From: Pseudogracilibacillus sp.
GTDB taxonomy: Bacteria; Bacillota; Bacilli; Bacillales; Amphibacillaceae
DNA: 64,000 nt
NCBI GenBank assembly: GCA_035301825.1
Contig: DATGTP010000034.1
Location: forward strand, 1,290-65,289
Reading direction: 5' to 3'
Shown here piece by piece: positions 52,495 to 58,502 of the stretch; position 1 is the first letter of the stretch, and the number at the start of each line of letters is the position of its first letter. Below the pieces are notes generated by a model, which saw only the letters and a list, made by a program, of their open reading frames with translations, did not search any database and was not told the origin of the DNA. The position numbers were made by a program, and so were the translations under genes.

Positions 52495-53553
52495 TTATAA
52501 TAAAGCTTTAATTTTTTGATGTGAAACGGAAAAAGGATAAGCATCTAAATCAGCTATGTTAACAAAGGTGAATGATTTTTTATTCTCTTCTGTCCATGTT
52601 ACATTCGCTTCATAAATATGTAAGTTCCATATTAAATGTGAAAAGACATGTTTAACATGACCAAGCTCTTCACTTAACTGCATAGGAACATGATAGTCAT
52701 TTTCTAGCCAATCATTGACCCGAACATTTTCTTTTGGAATCATCGGAAATTGCCACATATTTGCGAGTAATCCTTTACTTGGTCTTTGTTCAATCGCTAC
52801 TTGTCCATCTTCATTTTTTAAGATGACAGCATAATAGTCAATTACTTTTTGTTTTTTCTGCTTTCCTTTCACAGGTAATTGATCGACTAAACCTGTTTCA
52901 AATGCTTTACAATATTCACGTAAAGGACAATGCAAACAAGCTGGTTTTTTAGGTGAACAAATAAGCGCTCCAATTTCCATCAAGCCTTGATTAAAAGATG
53001 ACGGATCTTCTTCACTCACAACTTCCCGCATTATTGCCTCAAAGAGCTTCTTCGTTTTTGCCTCAGATATATTATCTTCAATGTCTAGTACACGAGACAT
53101 GACACGCATGACATTGCCGTCAACAGCCGGTTCTGGCATATCATATGCAATCGATAAGATTGCACCACGCGTATATGGACCAACCCCTTTTAATTGGCTA
53201 ATCTCTTTGACATTATTCGGTACCTTTCCATCAAAGTCTGCAACAACTTGTTTAGCGGCTTCATGCAAGTTCCGTGCTCTAGAATAATAGCCAAGTCCTT
53301 CCCACATTTTCAAAACAGCTTGTTCATCTGCTGCTGCTAAATCATAAACTGTTGGATAGTCTTTCATAAAACGTTCAAAATATGGAATAACCGTTGCCAC
53401 TTGTGTCTGTTGTAACATCACTTCAGATACCCAAATTTTATAAGGGTCCTTCGTTTTTCGCCAAGGCAGGTCACGTTTATTCGCTTCATACCAAGATAAT
53501 AATGATTGTTGAAATGCTTTTTTGTTGAAATACTGTAAAAATTCATTCGTCAT
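52495..53553 (-). CDS. mutY: A/G-specific adenine glycosylase
   Basis: RDLPWR, SEVMLQQT, GLGYYSRA, VDGNV, 4Fe-4S Cys cluster. Confidence 0.97.
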   Translation of the reverse strand: MTNEFLQYFNKKAFQQSLLSWYEANKRDLPWRKTKDPYKIWVSEVMLQQTQVATVIPYFERFMKDYPTVYDLAAADEQAVLKMWEGLGYYSRARNLHEAAKQVVADFDGKVPNNVKEISQLKGVGPYTRGAILSIAYDMPEPAVDGNVMRVMSRVLDIEDNISEAKTKKLFEAIMREVVSEEDPSSFNQGLMEIGALICSPKKPACLHCPLREYCKAFETGLVDQLPVKGKQKKQKVIDYYAVILKNEDGQVAIEQRPSKGLLANMWQFPMIPKENVRVNDWLENDYHVPMQLSEELGHVKHVFSHLIWNLHIYEANVTWTEENKKSFTFVNIADLDAYPFSVSHQKIKALL

Positions 53554-53621
53554 GAAAATGCCCCTTTATGATACAATAAAAGTAAGAATAATTATCTTAT
53601 AAATACAAGGAGATGCCTCAG

Positions 53622-54620
53622 ATGGATACAGGTACACATGTCGTTATGGGAGTTGCATTAGGTGGATTAGCAACCATTGATCCTGTGGTCAGTCAAGACC
53701 CAGTCTTATTTGGTGCGGTCTTTGCTGGAACGATGCTTGGATCACAAGCACCTGACTTTGATACCGTCTTAAAACTGAAAAGCAATGCAGCTTATATTCG
53801 AAATCACCGTGGCTTAACCCATTCCATACCGGCTGTCATTTTATGGGGAATTTTGATCGCTTCCCTCATCTATCTGATTGTACCGGATGTCGCCTTTTTC
53901 CACTTATGGTTATGGACCTTTATTGCCGTTATTTTACATGTCTTTGTTGATTTGTTTAATGCTTACGGTACACAAGCTCTGCGACCTTTTTCAAGCAAGT
54001 GGGTTGCCTTCGGATTTATTAATACATTTGACCCTTATATTTTCACCTTGCATCTTGCAGGGATTATTGCTTGGGTTTTAGGTGCTAGGCCAGCTGATAC
54101 CTTTATTATTATTTATATAATCATCATTTTATACTATATTAAACGCTATTTTGATAAACGAGAAATTGTTTTAAAAATTAAAGATAGTTTTAATGGTGTT
54201 GAAAATGTTTATACATCACCAACTCGAAAACAAAATCATTGGCGCATTGCCTTCTCAACGGAAACACGCTTTTTTGTTGGTGTCGTTGAAGATGGCCACA
54301 TTTATTTAATCGATGAGTTTGAACGGGTTGCCATGCCCGATACGAAACTAATTAACATTGCTAAAACAGATAAAAATATCGCTGCCTTTCTATCATTCTC
54401 ACCCATCTATCGATGGGAAGTGACAGCATATGAAAGATATACCGAAGTTCGTTTTATCGATCTACGCTATCGGTCTAAGGGACGCTACCCTTTCGTCGCT
54501 ATTTGTCATATAAATAATAAAGACCTAGTGACAAACTCCTATACAGGTTGGATTTTTTCAGAACATAAACTCCAAAACAAGCTCGCTTTTGGCGATGAAA
54601 TAAATAACAGCAAAGTATAA
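53622..54620 (+). CDS. yfhP: Metal-dependent hydrolase YfhP
   Basis: MDTGTH, SQAPDFD, HRGLTHS, LHVFVDLFNAYGTQ. Confidence 0.88.
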   Translation: MDTGTHVVMGVALGGLATIDPVVSQDPVLFGAVFAGTMLGSQAPDFDTVLKLKSNAAYIRNHRGLTHSIPAVILWGILIASLIYLIVPDVAFFHLWLWTFIAVILHVFVDLFNAYGTQALRPFSSKWVAFGFINTFDPYIFTLHLAGIIAWVLGARPADTFIIIYIIIILYYIKRYFDKREIVLKIKDSFNGVENVYTSPTRKQNHWRIAFSTETRFFVGVVEDGHIYLIDEFERVAMPDTKLINIAKTDKNIAAFLSFSPIYRWEVTAYERYTEVRFIDLRYRSKGRYPFVAICHINNKDLVTNSYTGWIFSEHKLQNKLAFGDEINNSKV

Positions 54621-54636
54621 TACTTTGCTGTTATTT

Positions 54637-54969
54637 TTATGCTTGTTTGTCGCCTAACATTGAAATCGGTAAGGCTTCTTCTACTTTTCTCATTTCACCT
54701 AACAAATTAATCCGATGTCCCCATGCCATGACACCATTAATATAATTCACATGGAAAGTATAGCCTGGATCTCCATTCAACTCATAAACCGTATGTTCTT
54801 CAAACTGATCTGGATTAATCATGTATGAAGCGACAATTTGCATTTTTCTTTCTATAATAGCCACTTTATTTACTTCTCCGACTTGTTCGGCTTTCAGTGA
54901 CTCCTCTTTTAATTTACCTAATTCATCACGTAATTGTTCTACTGTATAATCACTATATCGAATACTCAA
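54637..54969 (-). CDS. yfhH: YfhH family protein
   Basis: RYSDY..EQL..E, YINGVMAWG.R, ALPISML. Confidence 0.85.
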   Translation of the reverse strand: MSIRYSDYTVEQLRDELGKLKEESLKAEQVGEVNKVAIIERKMQIVASYMINPDQFEEHTVYELNGDPGYTFHVNYINGVMAWGHRINLLGEMRKVEEALPISMLGDKQA

Positions 54970-55003
54970 TTTGTTTCAGCTCCTTTTATGACCAACCTCT
55001 ATA

Positions 55004-55807
55004 TTACATCGATTCATTTAAATTTTCCATATATTCATTTATAGCATCTTGTGGGAATCCTCTTTGATAAAGAGCTGACTTCACACGCATTTTCAATTCA
55101 TAGCCATCGTATTTCCGTTTATATTTCGTTAAAAGCTTATCTGCTTGTTTCGTAATAATGTCTGAGTCTGTTTGGACTAAGTCATCTGTATGCAATTGTT
55201 CAATTACGGCGTCAATAACATCTTTTGTAAATCCTTTTTGAATTAATTTAACGCGAATTTGTTCCCGCTTCTTTCGAGCAGGATGTTTACTTCTTCGCTT
55301 CCATTGAACTTGAGCCCATTTTTCTGCCTTTTCAACTTGTTCATCAAATGTATATGTATAAGCGGCATCATGGGCAATTTGTTCATCAATGCCTTTTTGC
55401 ATCAGTTCCCGTTTAATAACAGTTGGTCCTTTTGACGTTAGCAACTTTCGATCTGCTACAAAGCTTTGTGCAAAGAGTGCATCATCTAACAATTTCTCTT
55501 CAAGCAGGCGAACAATAACACGTTGCAGGACGATTTGATCGACTTCTTGTTTGATTAAATAATCTTCCATCTCCTGAATAGAGCGAATGCGATAACTCAA
55601 ATAGCGAACGGCTAATGTATATGCTTTTTGAATCGACTCTTCATCTAATAATTGTTCAATTTCTTCTTCAGACAATTCCATACCTTTTCGTAAATAATGT
55701 TCAATAAAAATATCTTCATCGACACCAAAGGCAAATTGCCCATCTAAATATATATTGTAACGTCGTTTATTTTTCTTCTGTTGTTCCACTTTCGTAATCG
55801 TTCTCAT
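55004..55807 (-). CDS. recX: Regulatory protein RecX
   Basis: ITKVEQQKKNKRRYNIYLD, YLSYR.RS..E, KGP, KGF, RGF. Confidence 0.92.
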   Translation of the reverse strand: MRTITKVEQQKKNKRRYNIYLDGQFAFGVDEDIFIEHYLRKGMELSEEEIEQLLDEESIQKAYTLAVRYLSYRIRSIQEMEDYLIKQEVDQIVLQRVIVRLLEEKLLDDALFAQSFVADRKLLTSKGPTVIKRELMQKGIDEQIAHDAAYTYTFDEQVEKAEKWAQVQWKRRSKHPARKKREQIRVKLIQKGFTKDVIDAVIEQLHTDDLVQTDSDIITKQADKLLTKYKRKYDGYELKMRVKSALYQRGFPQDAINEYMENLNESM

Positions 55808-55866
55808 TTGACCACCTCACACTTATATCATAACATGAATATAAAGAGATTGCGGAGGCGATTCCT

Positions 55867-56763
55867 ATGAATATATTAATGACAGGTGGTACAGGTTTCA
55901 TTGGTAGTAAATTAGTTGATAAGCTCATTAGCGAAGGTCATCATGTCTATGTCTTAACGAGATATCCACAACGGTATGAAGATACCTCTTATTTATCTTA
56001 TATTAGTTACAATTATCCAATGAATCGATTGCCATTTATTCATGCAATCGTCAATTTAGCCGGTGAATCTATTTTCGGCTATTGGTCACATAGTAAGAAA
56101 GAAAAAATATTACAAAGTCGTTTAGACGTTACAGACCAGCTTGTTCGTCTCGTCATGCAAATGGGTGACAAGCCAGACGTTTTCATTTCTGGATCTGCTG
56201 TCGGTTATTATGGCGTGTCTGATGAACAAATTTTTACCGAAAAAACGGAAGCTGTTGGGACGGATTTTTTAGCCCAAGTAACTGAACAATGGGAAGAAGC
56301 AGCAAGTCCAATCGCTGACTTAGGTGTCAGAACAGTCTATTCTCGTTTTGGAATTGTGCTTGATCGGTATCACGGTGCCTTACCTATGATGGAACTTCCT
56401 GTTAACTTTTTCATCGGAGGGAAAATTGGCTCTGGTAAACAATGGATGTCATGGATTCATATTGATGATTGTATTAATATGCTCTATGAAGCTTTAACGA
56501 ATAAACATATTGTCGGCCCTTTAAATATAACAGCACCTTATCCGAGACGGAATAAAGACTTCATCCGACTCTTAACTAAAGCAAAAAGAAGACCTAATCT
56601 ACTTCCGGCACCGAAAGCAGCAATCAAGCTTGCTTTCGGTGACATGCATCAACTCATTACAGAAGGACAATACGTCCTTTCAAGTAAAATAAAAGATTAT
56701 CCTTTCACCTATAAATACGAACAACTTGAAGATGCTTTACAAGCAATCTATCAGTCAAATTAA
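55867..56763 (+). CDS. yfhF: TIGR01777 family NAD-dependent epimerase (YfhF)
   Basis: TGGTGFIG, NLAGE, SGSAVGYYG, GKQWMSWIHIDD. Confidence 0.9.
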   Translation: MNILMTGGTGFIGSKLVDKLISEGHHVYVLTRYPQRYEDTSYLSYISYNYPMNRLPFIHAIVNLAGESIFGYWSHSKKEKILQSRLDVTDQLVRLVMQMGDKPDVFISGSAVGYYGVSDEQIFTEKTEAVGTDFLAQVTEQWEEAASPIADLGVRTVYSRFGIVLDRYHGALPMMELPVNFFIGGKIGSGKQWMSWIHIDDCINMLYEALTNKHIVGPLNITAPYPRRNKDFIRLLTKAKRRPNLLPAPKAAIKLAFGDMHQLITEGQYVLSSKIKDYPFTYKYEQLEDALQAIYQSN

Positions 56764-56854
56764 ACGATCATAAAGTGATCGTTTTTTTATTTGTTAAGTT
56801 ATAAAATTGTCACATTTTTTTGAGGAAAATCTCTTTCTTTTTCAATGAAACCTG

Positions 56855-56924
56855 TTAGAATATAAAAAGTAGTTTATAGTTATTCATTTTAGAATCAAAA
56901 AAAGTAGTTCATAGTTTATCATTA
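56855..56924 (+). repeat. Imperfect tandem repeat, 2 x ~34 bp
   Basis: TTAGAATATAAAAAGTAGTTTATAGTTATTCATT / TTAGAATCAAAAAAAGTAGTTCATAGTTTATCATT. Confidence 0.65.
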
Positions 56925-57095
56925 AAGGGAAGGCAAATGGTGCGCCACTAGTTATCTTACTAGTCCTAGCTGGTTCGATTCCAGCCCCGAATTTTTGTTG
57001 AAACTAGACTTAAATTCGCGGGTGTTATCCTATCAGTTCCCTTACTTTCTTTATGTTTGGTACTAACACCCGTCCTATTATTGAAGGAGGGTGTT
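56925..57095 (+). ncRNA. Structured cis-regulatory leader with tRNA-like domain and RBS-switch platform
   Basis: D-like arm GGC-AAATGGTGC-GCC, ACTAGT hairpin, T arm GCTGG-TTCGATT-CCAGC; downstream alternative helices covering the GNAT RBS. Confidence 0.7.
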
Positions 57096-57099
57096 TTTT

Positions 57100-57666
57100 A
57101 TGCTTAAAAAACGAGATTTATTTGAAGTCAATACATTATATGAATTAGCCATTCATCCAGAAGTTAAGCCTTATATTCGTCAATCGACAGAGAGTGCTTT
57201 TCATTTTTATCAATCGACAGAAGAAATCATGCATGCCGAACTAAATGGTGAGCTCATTTCTCGTACAATCATCAATGAAGATAATGATCCAATCGGGACT
57301 ATTAATCTTTACGACATTCAACATGATGCAGGCTTTTTAGCAACATGGATTGGACAAGCATACTTTGGCAAAGGCTACAATCGTGCAGCAAAAGAAGCTT
57401 TTCTTTTTGAATTATTTTACCAAACAAACATAGACACTGTTTTTGTTAAAATCCGTAAAAATAACTTCCGGTCGATTCAAGCAGCATCAAAACTAGCTTA
57501 TATTGAACATGCAAATGAAACATACCCTTTTATGTATGCACAAATCAATCAAATAGAAGATCTTTATCATTTACTTGTCATAACAAAAGAGAATTTCTTT
57601 CAGCATATGGAAGTTATCCCCTTTGTTGAACATACTCAGACAATTAATGCAGAAGATGTTTCTTAA
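57100..57666 (+). CDS. GNAT N-acetyltransferase (RimJ/RimL type)
   Basis: PIGTI.L, WIGQAYFGKGYN acetyl-CoA loop, N.RS; ATG 57100 after AAGGAGG. Confidence 0.85.
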   Translation: MLKKRDLFEVNTLYELAIHPEVKPYIRQSTESAFHFYQSTEEIMHAELNGELISRTIINEDNDPIGTINLYDIQHDAGFLATWIGQAYFGKGYNRAAKEAFLFELFYQTNIDTVFVKIRKNNFRSIQAASKLAYIEHANETYPFMYAQINQIEDLYHLLVITKENFFQHMEVIPFVEHTQTINAEDVS

Positions 57667-57672
57667 CTGGAG

Positions 57673-57703
57673 AAGAGCCTTGCTTATCACAAGCTAGGCT
57701 CTT
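57673..57703. terminator. Bidirectional terminator after GNAT
   Basis: AAGAGCCT.GCTT...AAGC.AGGCTCTT. Confidence 0.6.
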
Positions 57704-57960
57704 TAATCCTCACTGATTAATAAGCACTTTATTTGATGATAAACATCTTCTTTTGTATAACCAACACCATAATGAAAAGGGATTTGGGCTAATTGTAGTG
57801 TGAATACAAGTTCTTCTATTTCCCCATTTTCTAGTCCATAGAGCCAAATGTCACTCGAATTTTCATATGAAATTAATGCATTAGGTGCAAGTGACTGTAT
57901 TAAATCATTAAAATGTCTCATATAGCTCATATCCCTTTGAAATGAAAAACATGCAATCAT
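57703..57960 (-). CDS. Hypothetical protein (85 aa)
   Basis: RBS GAGGTG, divergent from XRE gene; no recognisable motif. Confidence 0.55.
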   Translation of the reverse strand: MIACFSFQRDMSYMRHFNDLIQSLAPNALISYENSSDIWLYGLENGEIEELVFTLQLAQIPFHYGVGYTKEDVYHQIKCLLISED

Positions 57961-57981: not shown

Positions 57982-58023
57982 GTTCATAATTAGAACATTA
58001 TATACTTAGTTCTATATTAGAAC
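57982..58023. promoter_or_regulatory. Two palindromic GTTC-N7-GAAC operators (likely for the XRE regulator)
   Basis: GTTCATAATTAGAAC (57982-57996) and GTTCTATATTAGAAC (58009-58023). Confidence 0.6.
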
Positions 58024-58076
58024 GTAAAATCCCTTTTTTTCGTGATACGATATTTATTGGACAATATAAAAAGTGA

Positions 58077-58502
58077 GTGATAATGGTGACGGTTGACATG
58101 ATTTCATACAATATAAAATTCTTTCGTGAACAGCACGGCTGGACACAAGAACAATTAGCCAATAAAATGTTAAGTTCCCGTTCGAAAATTGCTAAGTGGG
58201 AAAGTAATACAAACATTCCCGATATTGAATCACTCATTGAATTATGTGATTTATTCGATGTGAGTTTAGACCATTTAGTGGGTAGGCAATCTTTCCAAAA
58301 GGAATTGTTGACTGATTTTAAACGCATATACCAACTAAATGATACGAATTATGATGATGATGTTGTCCAGCTCATGGAATACATTTTAAAACACGATAGT
58401 TTAAAACAGTCGCTCCTGCAATTAGAAGAACTGCCCATTCAAAAACAAAAATCACTCCATCATTTATTAAAAGCAATGATTGAGGAATATAAAAAAATAT
58501 AA
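58077..58502 (+). CDS. XRE/Cro-family HTH transcriptional regulator
   Basis: IKFFREQHGWTQEQLA..., I.KWE...PD..., FDVSLDHLVG; start may be 58098. Confidence 0.88.
   Translation: MIMVTVDMISYNIKFFREQHGWTQEQLANKMLSSRSKIAKWESNTNIPDIESLIELCDLFDVSLDHLVGRQSFQKELLTDFKRIYQLNDTNYDDDVVQLMEYILKHDSLKQSLLQLEELPIQKQKSLHHLLKAMIEEYKKI

Follow-up and report, generated by a model that had tools for sequence, protein, structure and literature searches.

A conserved tRNA-shaped RNA in the leader of a GNAT acetyltransferase gene of Bacillales: anatomy, distribution and comparison with known tRNA-like regulatory leaders

The yjdF aptamer adopts a tRNA-like fold with contacts that resemble those of D and T loops, and the stabilisation of this fold activates translation by out-competing the pairing of the Shine-Dalgarno (SD) sequence (PMC9142559). 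This riboswitch has been proposed to derive from tRNA-Lys (PMC9142559); its crystal structure is available, and it is again regarded as an orphan riboswitch (PMC12641257). The element described here is another tRNA-shaped leader. It lies on the + strand of a 64,000-nt stretch of the genome of Pseudogracilibacillus sp. (the window, from whose first letter all coordinates are counted), just upstream of a gene for a GNAT N-acetyltransferase, and it is almost certainly a functional, structured cis-regulatory leader.

The initial annotation of this stretch described a cloverleaf at 56927-56988, shaped like a tRNA without being one, in the leader of a RimJ/RimL-type GNAT gene. All the letters and coordinates that it gave for the parts of the cloverleaf are present in the sequence. 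The gene, which it placed about 110 nt downstream on the same strand, starts with an ATG at 57100, 112 nt 3' of the cloverleaf, and encodes a PF13302 protein. The cloverleaf is the 5' portion of a larger conserved unit of about 100 nt (56924-57026), which continues into a fifth hairpin and the beginning of the expression platform. The features of the leader, all on the + strand, are the following (MFE, minimum free energy; CM, covariance model):

56927..56988, +, tRNA-like cloverleaf (aptamer core), from the MFE fold, the CM match and covariation in the anticodon-like and T arms
56927-29 with 56986-88, +, stem P1, GGG paired with CCC (3 bp), with AA after the GGG, from sequence and fold
56932-46, +, D-like arm GGC/AAATGGTGC/GCC, from sequence and fold
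56947-64, +, hairpin at the anticodon position, ACTAGT/TATCTT/ACTAGT, from sequence and fold
56965-68, +, variable region CCTA, from sequence
56969-85, +, T-like arm GCTGG/TTCGATT/CCAGC with the loop TTCGATT, from sequence and fold
56989..57017, +, hairpin P5, GAATTT (56989-94) paired with AAATTC (57012-17), from sequence and leader fold
57020..57026, +, switch strand GGGTGTT, from sequence
57065..57099, +, terminator or SD-sequestering hairpin, AACACCC-G-TCCT (57065-76) paired with AGGA-GGGTGTT (57085-95), followed by TTTT (57096-99)
57100..57666, +, monocistronic gene of the GNAT N-acetyltransferase (188 aa), from Pfam

P5 is directly continuous with the 3' strand of P1 and therefore stands in place of an extension of the acceptor stem, closed by a loop; at its base, C56988 can alternatively pair with G57018. 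The segment that comes right after P5 is rich in G: the window has GCGGGTGTT at 57018-26, and most relatives have G(A/C/U)GGGUGG. Further downstream, the TTTT of the terminator abuts the ATG, and the SD sequence GGAGG (57086-90) is inside the 3' half of the terminator stem.

The MFE structure that RNAfold predicts for 56920-56995 is exactly the cloverleaf (-20.1 kcal/mol). This energy is unremarkable by itself (z = -1.68; 14 of 200 shuffled sequences fold equally well), so the support for the cloverleaf rests on conservation. The energy of the whole leader (56900-57105) is more unusual (z = -3.48).

When 200 genomes of the family were searched with a BLAST-type method (counts are given out of 201), 115 of the 201 had a single match each, of about 100 nt, covering approximately positions 56921-57024 of the window with 75-87% identity. 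A covariance model, R1, was built from an alignment of 30 aptamers (A2). It matches the window at 56924-57026 with 101.1 bits. Of 151 genomes sampled over the order Bacillales, 117, belonging to most of its 52 families, contain a single strong hit each; the scores of these hits are given as 62-114 and also as 78-124 bits. The matches listed include Priestia megaterium and members of Peribacillus, Neobacillus, Cytobacillus, Metabacillus, Psychrobacillus, Domibacillus, Jeotgalibacillus, Heyndrickxia, Anoxybacteroides, Sutcliffiella, Halobacillus and Oceanobacillus. The lineage of the window itself groups with halophilic genera (Halobacillus, Virgibacillus, Oceanobacillus and their relatives). 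Outside the order, a sample of the class gave strong hits in one further family (4 of 10 genomes), also before the GNAT gene, and a sample of the phylum (151 genomes) gave none among the roughly 146 that are outside the class Bacilli. In the genome of the window itself (a 1.69-Mb assembly, 80% complete) the element is present in a single copy, and a repeat or mobile element was rejected on this ground.

The element is found just 5' of a GNAT orthologue (50-57% amino acid identity) in all 30 loci fetched from the family, and all 117 strong hits in the order precede this gene. The distance from the element to the start codon is 26-148 nt. The RNA, with 75-87% identity, is thus better conserved than the protein in the family loci. 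A protein search of the same 151 genomes detected the orthologue in 117 of them, and inspection added a diverged copy (37% identity) that follows a leader in genome G238; over all searches, the identity of the orthologues ranges from 37 to 57%. The tally is therefore 117 genomes with leader and gene, one with the gene only and 33 with neither.

The genome that has the gene only is G282, in which the region upstream of the orthologue (44% identity; locus L204, G282:C34:272300-273400) is ordinary and unrelated to the element: this lineage has retained the gene, and its tRNA-like leader was lost or replaced. Genome G275 has three strong copies of the leader, two of which (L201 and L202) precede GNAT paralogues. 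The third (L200, G275:C16:10400-12400, minus strand) is the only examined copy without a GNAT orthologue behind it. It is followed by a 9-codon open reading frame (ORF) and then, about 175 nt further on, by the gene of a 180-aa membrane protein which we take to be UPF0316/YebE-like. This copy is probably a deletion remnant.

Pairing, conservation and expression platforms were counted in an alignment, A3, of 100 CM-aligned copies, of which 97 are distinct; the counts refer to these 97 sequences. Standard pairs occupy 98.7% of the paired cells, a share that falls to 33-62% if the 3' sides are shifted by 1-3 columns. Changes on both sides are seen in 10 of the 25 modelled pairs (85 cells); in 500 shuffles, values as high as those observed were never obtained. 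These compensatory changes are located in the hairpin at the anticodon position, in the T-like arm and in P5. The T stem, for example, occurs as GUGGG/CCCAC, GUAGG/CCUAC, GCAGG/CCUGC, GCUGG/CCAGC and AUGGG/CCCAU. The initial annotation had made covariation of the D- and T-like arms upstream of orthologous GNAT genes a condition of its proposal: the T-like arm does covary, as does the arm at the anticodon position, and the D-like arm and the 3-bp stem are invariant, so that covariation neither supports nor refutes this part of the claim. The possibility that a small ORF explains the conservation was rejected, since the substitutions in the stems are compensatory and stop codons, read by eye, are apparent in all frames of 56926-57024 on both strands.

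Conservation is not limited to pairing. At least 97% conservation is reached at 55 of the 102 model positions, including the unbroken run GGGAAGGCAAAUGGUGCGCCACC, the T loop UUCGAUU and the segment CCCCGAA. P5 keeps both its sequence and its pairing: all relatives have GAA(A)UUUUU/AAAAA(U)UUC, and the helix is paired at 99%, an A-U insertion being present in both of its strands and a G-U pair occurring as a variant. The loops at the ends of two hairpins are free to vary. The one at the anticodon position has 1-14 nt of unconserved sequence and that of P5 has 9-21 nt. Five leaders (L083, L092, L096, L113 and L130) carry insertions of 43-51 nt in the loop of P5, which brings them to 134-137 nt in total and shows that large additions are tolerated at the tip of this hairpin.

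The resemblance to tRNA was examined with dedicated tools. ARAGORN finds no tRNA gene in the window, and no Rfam 15 family reaches its gathering score over the whole window, in agreement with the initial annotation, which did not recognise the element as a named family. An E-value scan of 56700-57200 and of a consensus-type copy of the element from another genome (L031) returned chance-level hits (rliB, STnc260 and miRNA models) besides a match of L031 to the tRNA model RF00005, which is not listed for the region of the window at E<=10. The model aligns with L031 over its positions 5-66 of 71, with 24.6 bits (gathering score 29) and E 0.003. This match, although below threshold, supports the likeness to tRNA.

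The numbering of the element as a tRNA is taken from the alignment with L031, in which GGG corresponds to positions 5-7 and AA to positions 8-9. They are followed by a D stem GGCA/CGCC with the D loop AAUGGUG, A26, a 5-bp stem of the anticodon type, a 5-nt variable region (UUCUA), the T arm and CCC at positions 66-68. The nucleotides that form the elbow (G18, G19, U54, U55, C56, A58 and the pair G53-C61) are present and invariant in the 97 sequences. The D-loop GG and the T loop, whose retention had been pointed out from the window's single copy, are thus kept throughout. Several positions of the core are invariant and yet non-canonical: A8 with A14, A15 with A48, and A13 opposite C22. The contacts of the elbow and of the core are assigned here on the basis of the established structure of tRNA. 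A real tRNA gene is ruled out by the negative result of ARAGORN, by a P1 of 3 bp instead of an acceptor stem of 7 bp, and by the absence of a discriminator base, of CCA and of a 7-nt anticodon loop. The 3' side of P1 runs on into P5, and there is no free 3' end.

The runner-up hits of R1 are informative about the nearest tRNA. In the window's genome they are tRNA-Gly(UCC), tRNA-Trp and tRNA-Gly(UCC), all genuine tRNAs. Among 20 runner-ups in other Bacillales, 16 are tRNA-Gly (13 with the anticodon UCC and 3 with CCC) and 4 are tRNA-Trp, and the 11 from other orders of the class comprise at least 7 tRNA-Gly and 2 tRNA-Gln. The consensus cloverleaf has 38 identities out of 60 with the tRNA-Gly(UCC) of Bacillales, including 16 of the 17 positions of the T arm, and tRNA-Trp obtains the same score against this consensus. 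Plain pairwise alignment of the window's diverged copy with the tRNAs of its own genome singled out no tRNA, whereas the comparisons based on the consensus and on the CM did, with tRNA-Gly(UCC) the best in that genome. From sequence similarity, descent from a tRNA gene, most like that of tRNA-Gly(UCC), is likely.

A tRNA origin raises the question of whether the element is just a decayed tRNA gene or the scar of an integration event, functionless and located before the GNAT gene by chance. A cloverleaf that escapes ARAGORN, has a shortened acceptor stem and, in the consensus-type copy, matches the tRNA model below threshold is what such a relic would look like. However, a relic would not be expected to keep 75-87% identity with compensatory changes in more than 100 genera, before the same gene, with 55 of 102 positions nearly invariant and without being repeated. 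The conservation data exclude this explanation, to which we give practically no credit.

Downstream of P5, all seven nucleotides of the switch strand GGGTGTT (57020-26) are complementary to the anti-SD strand AACACCC (57065-71), with which they can form an antiterminator. Nearly all homologues have an equivalent of the switch strand, G(A/C/U)GGGUGG, and the anti-SD strand is CCCUC or CCCACC elsewhere; the anti-SD strand is also complementary to the SD region. Folded alone, the platform adopts the pairing of the switch segment with the anti-SD strand; the folding energy of the platform in the window is -20.3 kcal/mol. Of the 97 leaders, 36 (that of the window among them) have a run of U between the last hairpin and the start codon, so that the hairpin is a terminator which also hides the SD sequence. 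The others have a CCCUC:GGAGGG SD sequestor without a U tail. A conserved, structured aptamer is joined to variable platforms of more than one type, and by analogy the use of two platform types with one aptamer is as in riboswitch classes.

The connection between the aptamer and the platform would be made by the CCC of P1, which can alternatively pair with the 3' GGG of the switch strand in 90-96 of the 97 sequences. In the scheme that we propose, CCC 56986-88 would have two alternative partners: the 5' GGG, a pairing that closes the cloverleaf, and the GGG in the segment GGGTGTT (most relatives have GAGGGUGG there). If the tRNA-like fold is stabilised, the downstream segment would be free to pair with the anti-SD AACACCC; the anti-SD strand being occupied, the terminator or SD-sequestering hairpin could not form and the GNAT would be made (ON). 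If the fold is not stabilised, CCC would pair with the switch segment, joined in most species by the T stem's 3' strand, and the anti-SD strand would be left to pair with the SD sequence, forming in the window also the terminator that ends at the ATG (OFF). When the cloverleaf is forced in a thermodynamic model, the predicted accessibility of the SD sequence increases in 45 of the 97 leaders and decreases in none. On balance, a switch that is ON when the tRNA-like state is folded, with a putative stabilising effector, appears to be the better supposition, with substantial room for doubt.

Without constraint, the MFE favours the alternative helix over the cloverleaf by about 9 kcal/mol, which implies that the tRNA-like state needs extra stabilisation. 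This could be provided by tertiary contacts, by a ligand or cation, by a protein or by co-transcriptional kinetics. By analogy with the yjdF riboswitch, the trigger would most likely be a small ligand or a cation that binds the remodelled tRNA core.

Two other helices were considered and discarded. An OFF helix that extends over the T stem's 3' strand (CCCAC:GUGGG) is possible in 75-85 of the 97 sequences and is not maintained when the T stem changes. A long-range helix that joins the 5' end (AGGGAAGGCAAA) to the linker is present in the MFE structure of the window and seemed by eye to recur (TTCCCTT); it was rejected as a conserved feature, its duplex energies being no better than those obtained with shuffled linkers (mean z of -0.09 for terminator-type leaders and +0.23 for the others).

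The element might also act without sensing anything, as a constitutive tRNA-like structure that is cut by RNase P or RNase Z, protects the 5' end or boosts translation. RNase P recognises the elbow and the stack of the T arm on the acceptor stem, and the element has both the elbow and an acceptor-like stack. Its position near the predicted 5' end of the mRNA is suited to such a role, and authentic tRNAs placed in leaders raise translation in vitro (PMC9142559). But a passive element would need neither the chain of mutually exclusive helices that leads to the SD sequence or terminator in nearly all homologues nor two expression platforms on one domain. In addition, P1 has only 3 bp and lacks a free 3' end. 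This explanation is held to be quite unlikely.

The regulated protein belongs to PF13302 (Acetyltransf_3, E 2.4e-12, 48.2 bits for a cut-off of 25.4) and also matches PF00583 (E 2.4e-5). It has no equivalog in NCBIfam and no relative at E<1e-3 among PDB sequences. Its only hit in NCBIfam is a faint one (E 1e-4, residues 57-157), to the GNAT domain of 'ileS_w_GNAT', an isoleucyl-tRNA synthetase with an inserted GNAT. The AlphaFold2 model (predicted local distance difference test, pLDDT, 81) matches GNAT structures in Foldseek with a probability of 1.00. The nearest folds, FdhC, SpeG, RimJ and PseH, are about equal, with template modelling (TM) scores of 0.62-0.71 and 11-21% identity; the structures of RimJ match no better than those of FdhC, SpeG or PseH. 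Elsewhere the protein is labelled only as 'GNAT family / RimJ/RimL / alanine acetyltransferase', and a protein atlas contains only 'GNAT/RimJ/RimL' clusters. The orthologues are acidic, with a mean isoelectric point (pI) of 5.4 and a pI above 7 in 3 of 93. This acidity is weak evidence against a GNAT that binds RNA as an autoregulator or modifies tRNA, and weak evidence for a substrate that is cationic.

These data bear on a particular form of the switch, in which spermidine, spermine or another cation would stabilise the fold and turn on a polyamine-type N-acetyltransferase that neutralises the excess. The tertiary folding of tRNA depends on Mg2+ and polyamines, the 9 kcal/mol by which the cloverleaf is disfavoured calls for tertiary stabilisation, an acidic GNAT is expected for an enzyme acting on cationic substrates, and the SpeG spermidine acetyltransferases are among the nearest folds (TM 0.62-0.67). 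However, the Foldseek matches are generic for GNATs (11-21% identity, with FdhC, RimJ and PseH matching alike) and there is no polyamine gene in the neighbourhood. A sensor of polyamines or Mg2+ is therefore a long shot.

A bolder proposal, conceivable but less likely than not, is that the element is a new metabolite- or ion-sensing riboswitch class built on an exapted tRNA-Gly scaffold, ancestral to the Bacillales, with the invariant core (A8, A14, A15, A48 and A13-C22) as the ligand pocket. What the sequences themselves show is the conservation, the linkage to the gene, the covarying helices and the possibility of the alternative pairings; which way the switch works, that it has an effector and that the domain descends from a tRNA are inferred.

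Several observations weigh against the proposed switch. Covariation is silent on P1 (GGG/CCC) and on the D-like stem (GGC/GCC), because neither of them ever varies. The alternative helix shows no compensatory change among the 97 sequences and is weak in the window, and the direction of the switch derives from nearest-neighbour modelling only. The variants of the T stem (CCUAC, CCUGC, CCAGC and CCCAU) are not matched in the switch segment, so that the 3-bp CCC:GGG competition is the only universal one. Ancestry from tRNA-Gly is unproven, since the similarity is modest (38/60) and tRNA-Trp ties with it. The gene context (fold neighbours of the GNAT and gene neighbourhoods) yields no candidate for the ligand. 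Lastly, a single gene family is regulated, with no second type apart from the one probable deletion remnant, a pattern which is typical of protein-mediated autoregulation and not of metabolite riboswitches.

The last point leads to a different explanation, in which the element is a tRNA mimic operated by a protein: a tRNA-binding protein would read the domain and set the switch, as the threonyl-tRNA synthetase (ThrRS) does on the thrS operator of E. coli. The protein could be the GNAT itself, by autoregulation, or a tRNA-processing, tRNA-modifying or elbow-binding factor that is titrated by free tRNA. The restriction to one gene family (117 of 117 strong hits in the order precede a GNAT) is typical of autoregulatory leaders, and the invariant features (the elbow, the T arm and the acceptor-like stack of T stem, P1 and P5) are those that tRNA-binding proteins read; the conservation of P5 in both sequence and pairing points in the same direction. 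On the other hand, the orthologues of the GNAT are acidic (mean pI 5.4, 3 of 93 above 7), unlike known RNA-binding GNATs, and the identity elements of aminoacyl-tRNA synthetases are absent (there is no anticodon, 7-bp acceptor stem, discriminator base or CCA). The modelled behaviour, in which the folded state is ON, also fits negative autoregulation poorly. A protein-operated mimic is thus considered unlikely, while being the most serious competitor of the proposed effector-stabilised switch.

Two further features lie upstream of the element:

56762..56784, +, intrinsic terminator of the upstream TIGR01777 (yfhF-like) gene, found by scan as a 10-bp stem followed by TTTTTATTTGT
56855..56923, +, putative promoter region and 5' end of the leader, a tandem duplication with a 35-nt unit, from Tandem Repeats Finder

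The terminator separates the yfhF-like gene from the leader's transcription unit. The tandem repeat (period 35, 2.0 copies, 85% matches) is specific to the window's genome, the relatives being devoid of the duplication. A -10-like TTAGAAT opens each copy, and the genome might thus possess either a pair of tandem promoters or a 5' leader that has been duplicated. The first TTAGAAT is preceded by TG, which gives the promoter-like TGTTAGAAT at 56853-61, upstream of the element, and in relatives TG-extended -10 boxes (TGTAAAAT and TAGTATTAT) are found 25-40 nt upstream of the element. A consensus promoter scan of the region returned nothing by its own criteria.

The genes at 52495-56763 (mutY, ydjM/yfhP-like, recX and the yfhF-like TIGR01777 gene) are presumably the counterpart of the yfh region of B. 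subtilis. The synteny with the yfhF-like and recX genes is partial (20 of 80 loci), and the unit formed by the leader and the GNAT gene follows the yfhF-like gene in 9 of the 19 related loci that show both genes. The GNAT gene is usually monocistronic, and no downstream partner gene recurs at related loci. In the window, two small ORFs on the minus strand converge on it, at 57703-57960 (85 aa) and 57998-58327 (109 aa); neither has a match in Pfam or NCBIfam or a homologue in 80 related 8-kb loci.

An RNA of about 100 nt, conserved nearly base for base over most families of Bacillales and absent from Rfam 15 and from the papers searched, represents a sizeable gap in a much-studied order. A full-text literature search returned no paper with the core sequence and no description under tRNA-like, GNAT or riboswitch terms, and the element is unmentioned in two large catalogues of motifs (PMC5737381 and PMC11109978). 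It also gives a handle on the GNAT, as the trigger of the switch and the substrate of the enzyme are probably related; should there be a ligand, it would reveal the substrate of a widespread and uncharacterised acetyltransferase. Since Priestia megaterium carries the element, its study in a tractable organism is feasible.

Compared with tRNAs (RF00005), and especially with the tRNA-Gly(UCC) of Bacillales, the element has the same cloverleaf order, the D loop AAUGGU, the T arm GUGGGUUCGAUUCCCA (16 of 17 positions identical) and, in its hairpin at the anticodon position, a sequence similar to that of the anticodon stem. It differs from them by its 3-bp acceptor stem, by A8 in place of U8, by the lack of a discriminator base and CCA, by an unconserved loop of 1-14 nt at the anticodon position, and by being embedded in the leader of an mRNA.

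The T-box leaders (RF00230) are also found in Bacillota, are also related to tRNA and also have a terminator/antiterminator or an SD-sequestering platform; the G-rich switch strand of the element, GGGUGG, resembles part of the T-box sequence. However, a T-box binds a tRNA, whereas the element looks like one, and the element has no Stem I, specifier loop or UGGN bulge. Given that RF00230 matches neither the window nor L031 and that the element resembles a tRNA instead of binding one, it is not a T-box.

The operator of thrS in E. coli and similar mimicry leaders share with the element the principle of a tRNA-like structure in the 5' untranslated region of one gene family which controls access to the ribosome-binding site. 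The thrS operator mimics an anticodon arm, and the control involves steric competition with the ribosome. In the element, on the contrary, the anticodon position is unconstrained, and the elbow, the core and the acceptor side are conserved instead; it is therefore not an operator of the thrS type. Its control would also proceed through alternative helices located 30-110 nt from the domain, and its gene encodes an acidic GNAT without known RNA binding. If it turns out to be operated by a protein, it would be a Gram-positive counterpart of thrS-type mimicry that is read on the elbow side and not at the anticodon.

The closest known system is the yjdF riboswitch (azaaromatic, RF01764). Both are cis-acting leaders of Bacillota with a four-way junction, loops that resemble D and T loops and a tRNA-like L shape; in each case the association is almost entirely with a single gene family, and a tRNA origin is proposed for both. 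The stabilisation of the fold turns yjdF ON, and the element is alike in this respect only in the modelled scheme. The element differs from yjdF in that it regulates a PF13302 GNAT, combines a 3-bp P1 with an A/U-rich P5, has a T arm nearly identical to that of real tRNAs, and often has a platform of the terminator type (36 of 97); the nearest tRNA is tRNA-Lys for yjdF and tRNA-Gly(UCC) for the element. The RF01764 model has no match at E<=10 in positions 56700-57200 of the window or 1490-1690 of L031, and none at gathering level in the whole window. No gene of the yjdF family is found downstream in any of the examined loci, which have a PF13302 GNAT or, in L200, the UPF0316-like gene. Considering the absence of a match, the different gene and the architecture of 3-bp P1 and P5, the element is not a member of the yjdF family.

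If the element is a true riboswitch, it would follow yjdF as only the second natural one with the shape of a tRNA, and of the two it would be the closer to a real tRNA. It would then have implications for the origin of sensor RNAs through exaptation of tRNA genes, as well as for the range of molecules that a tRNA fold can be made to bind; a riboswitch on a tRNA-Gly scaffold would mean, together with yjdF, that tRNA genes were repeatedly recruited as sensor domains of mRNAs. Judging from Rfam 15 and the searchable papers, we rate the element as a new family, which takes its place among tRNA-shaped regulatory leaders and riboswitches with yjdF as its nearest neighbour.

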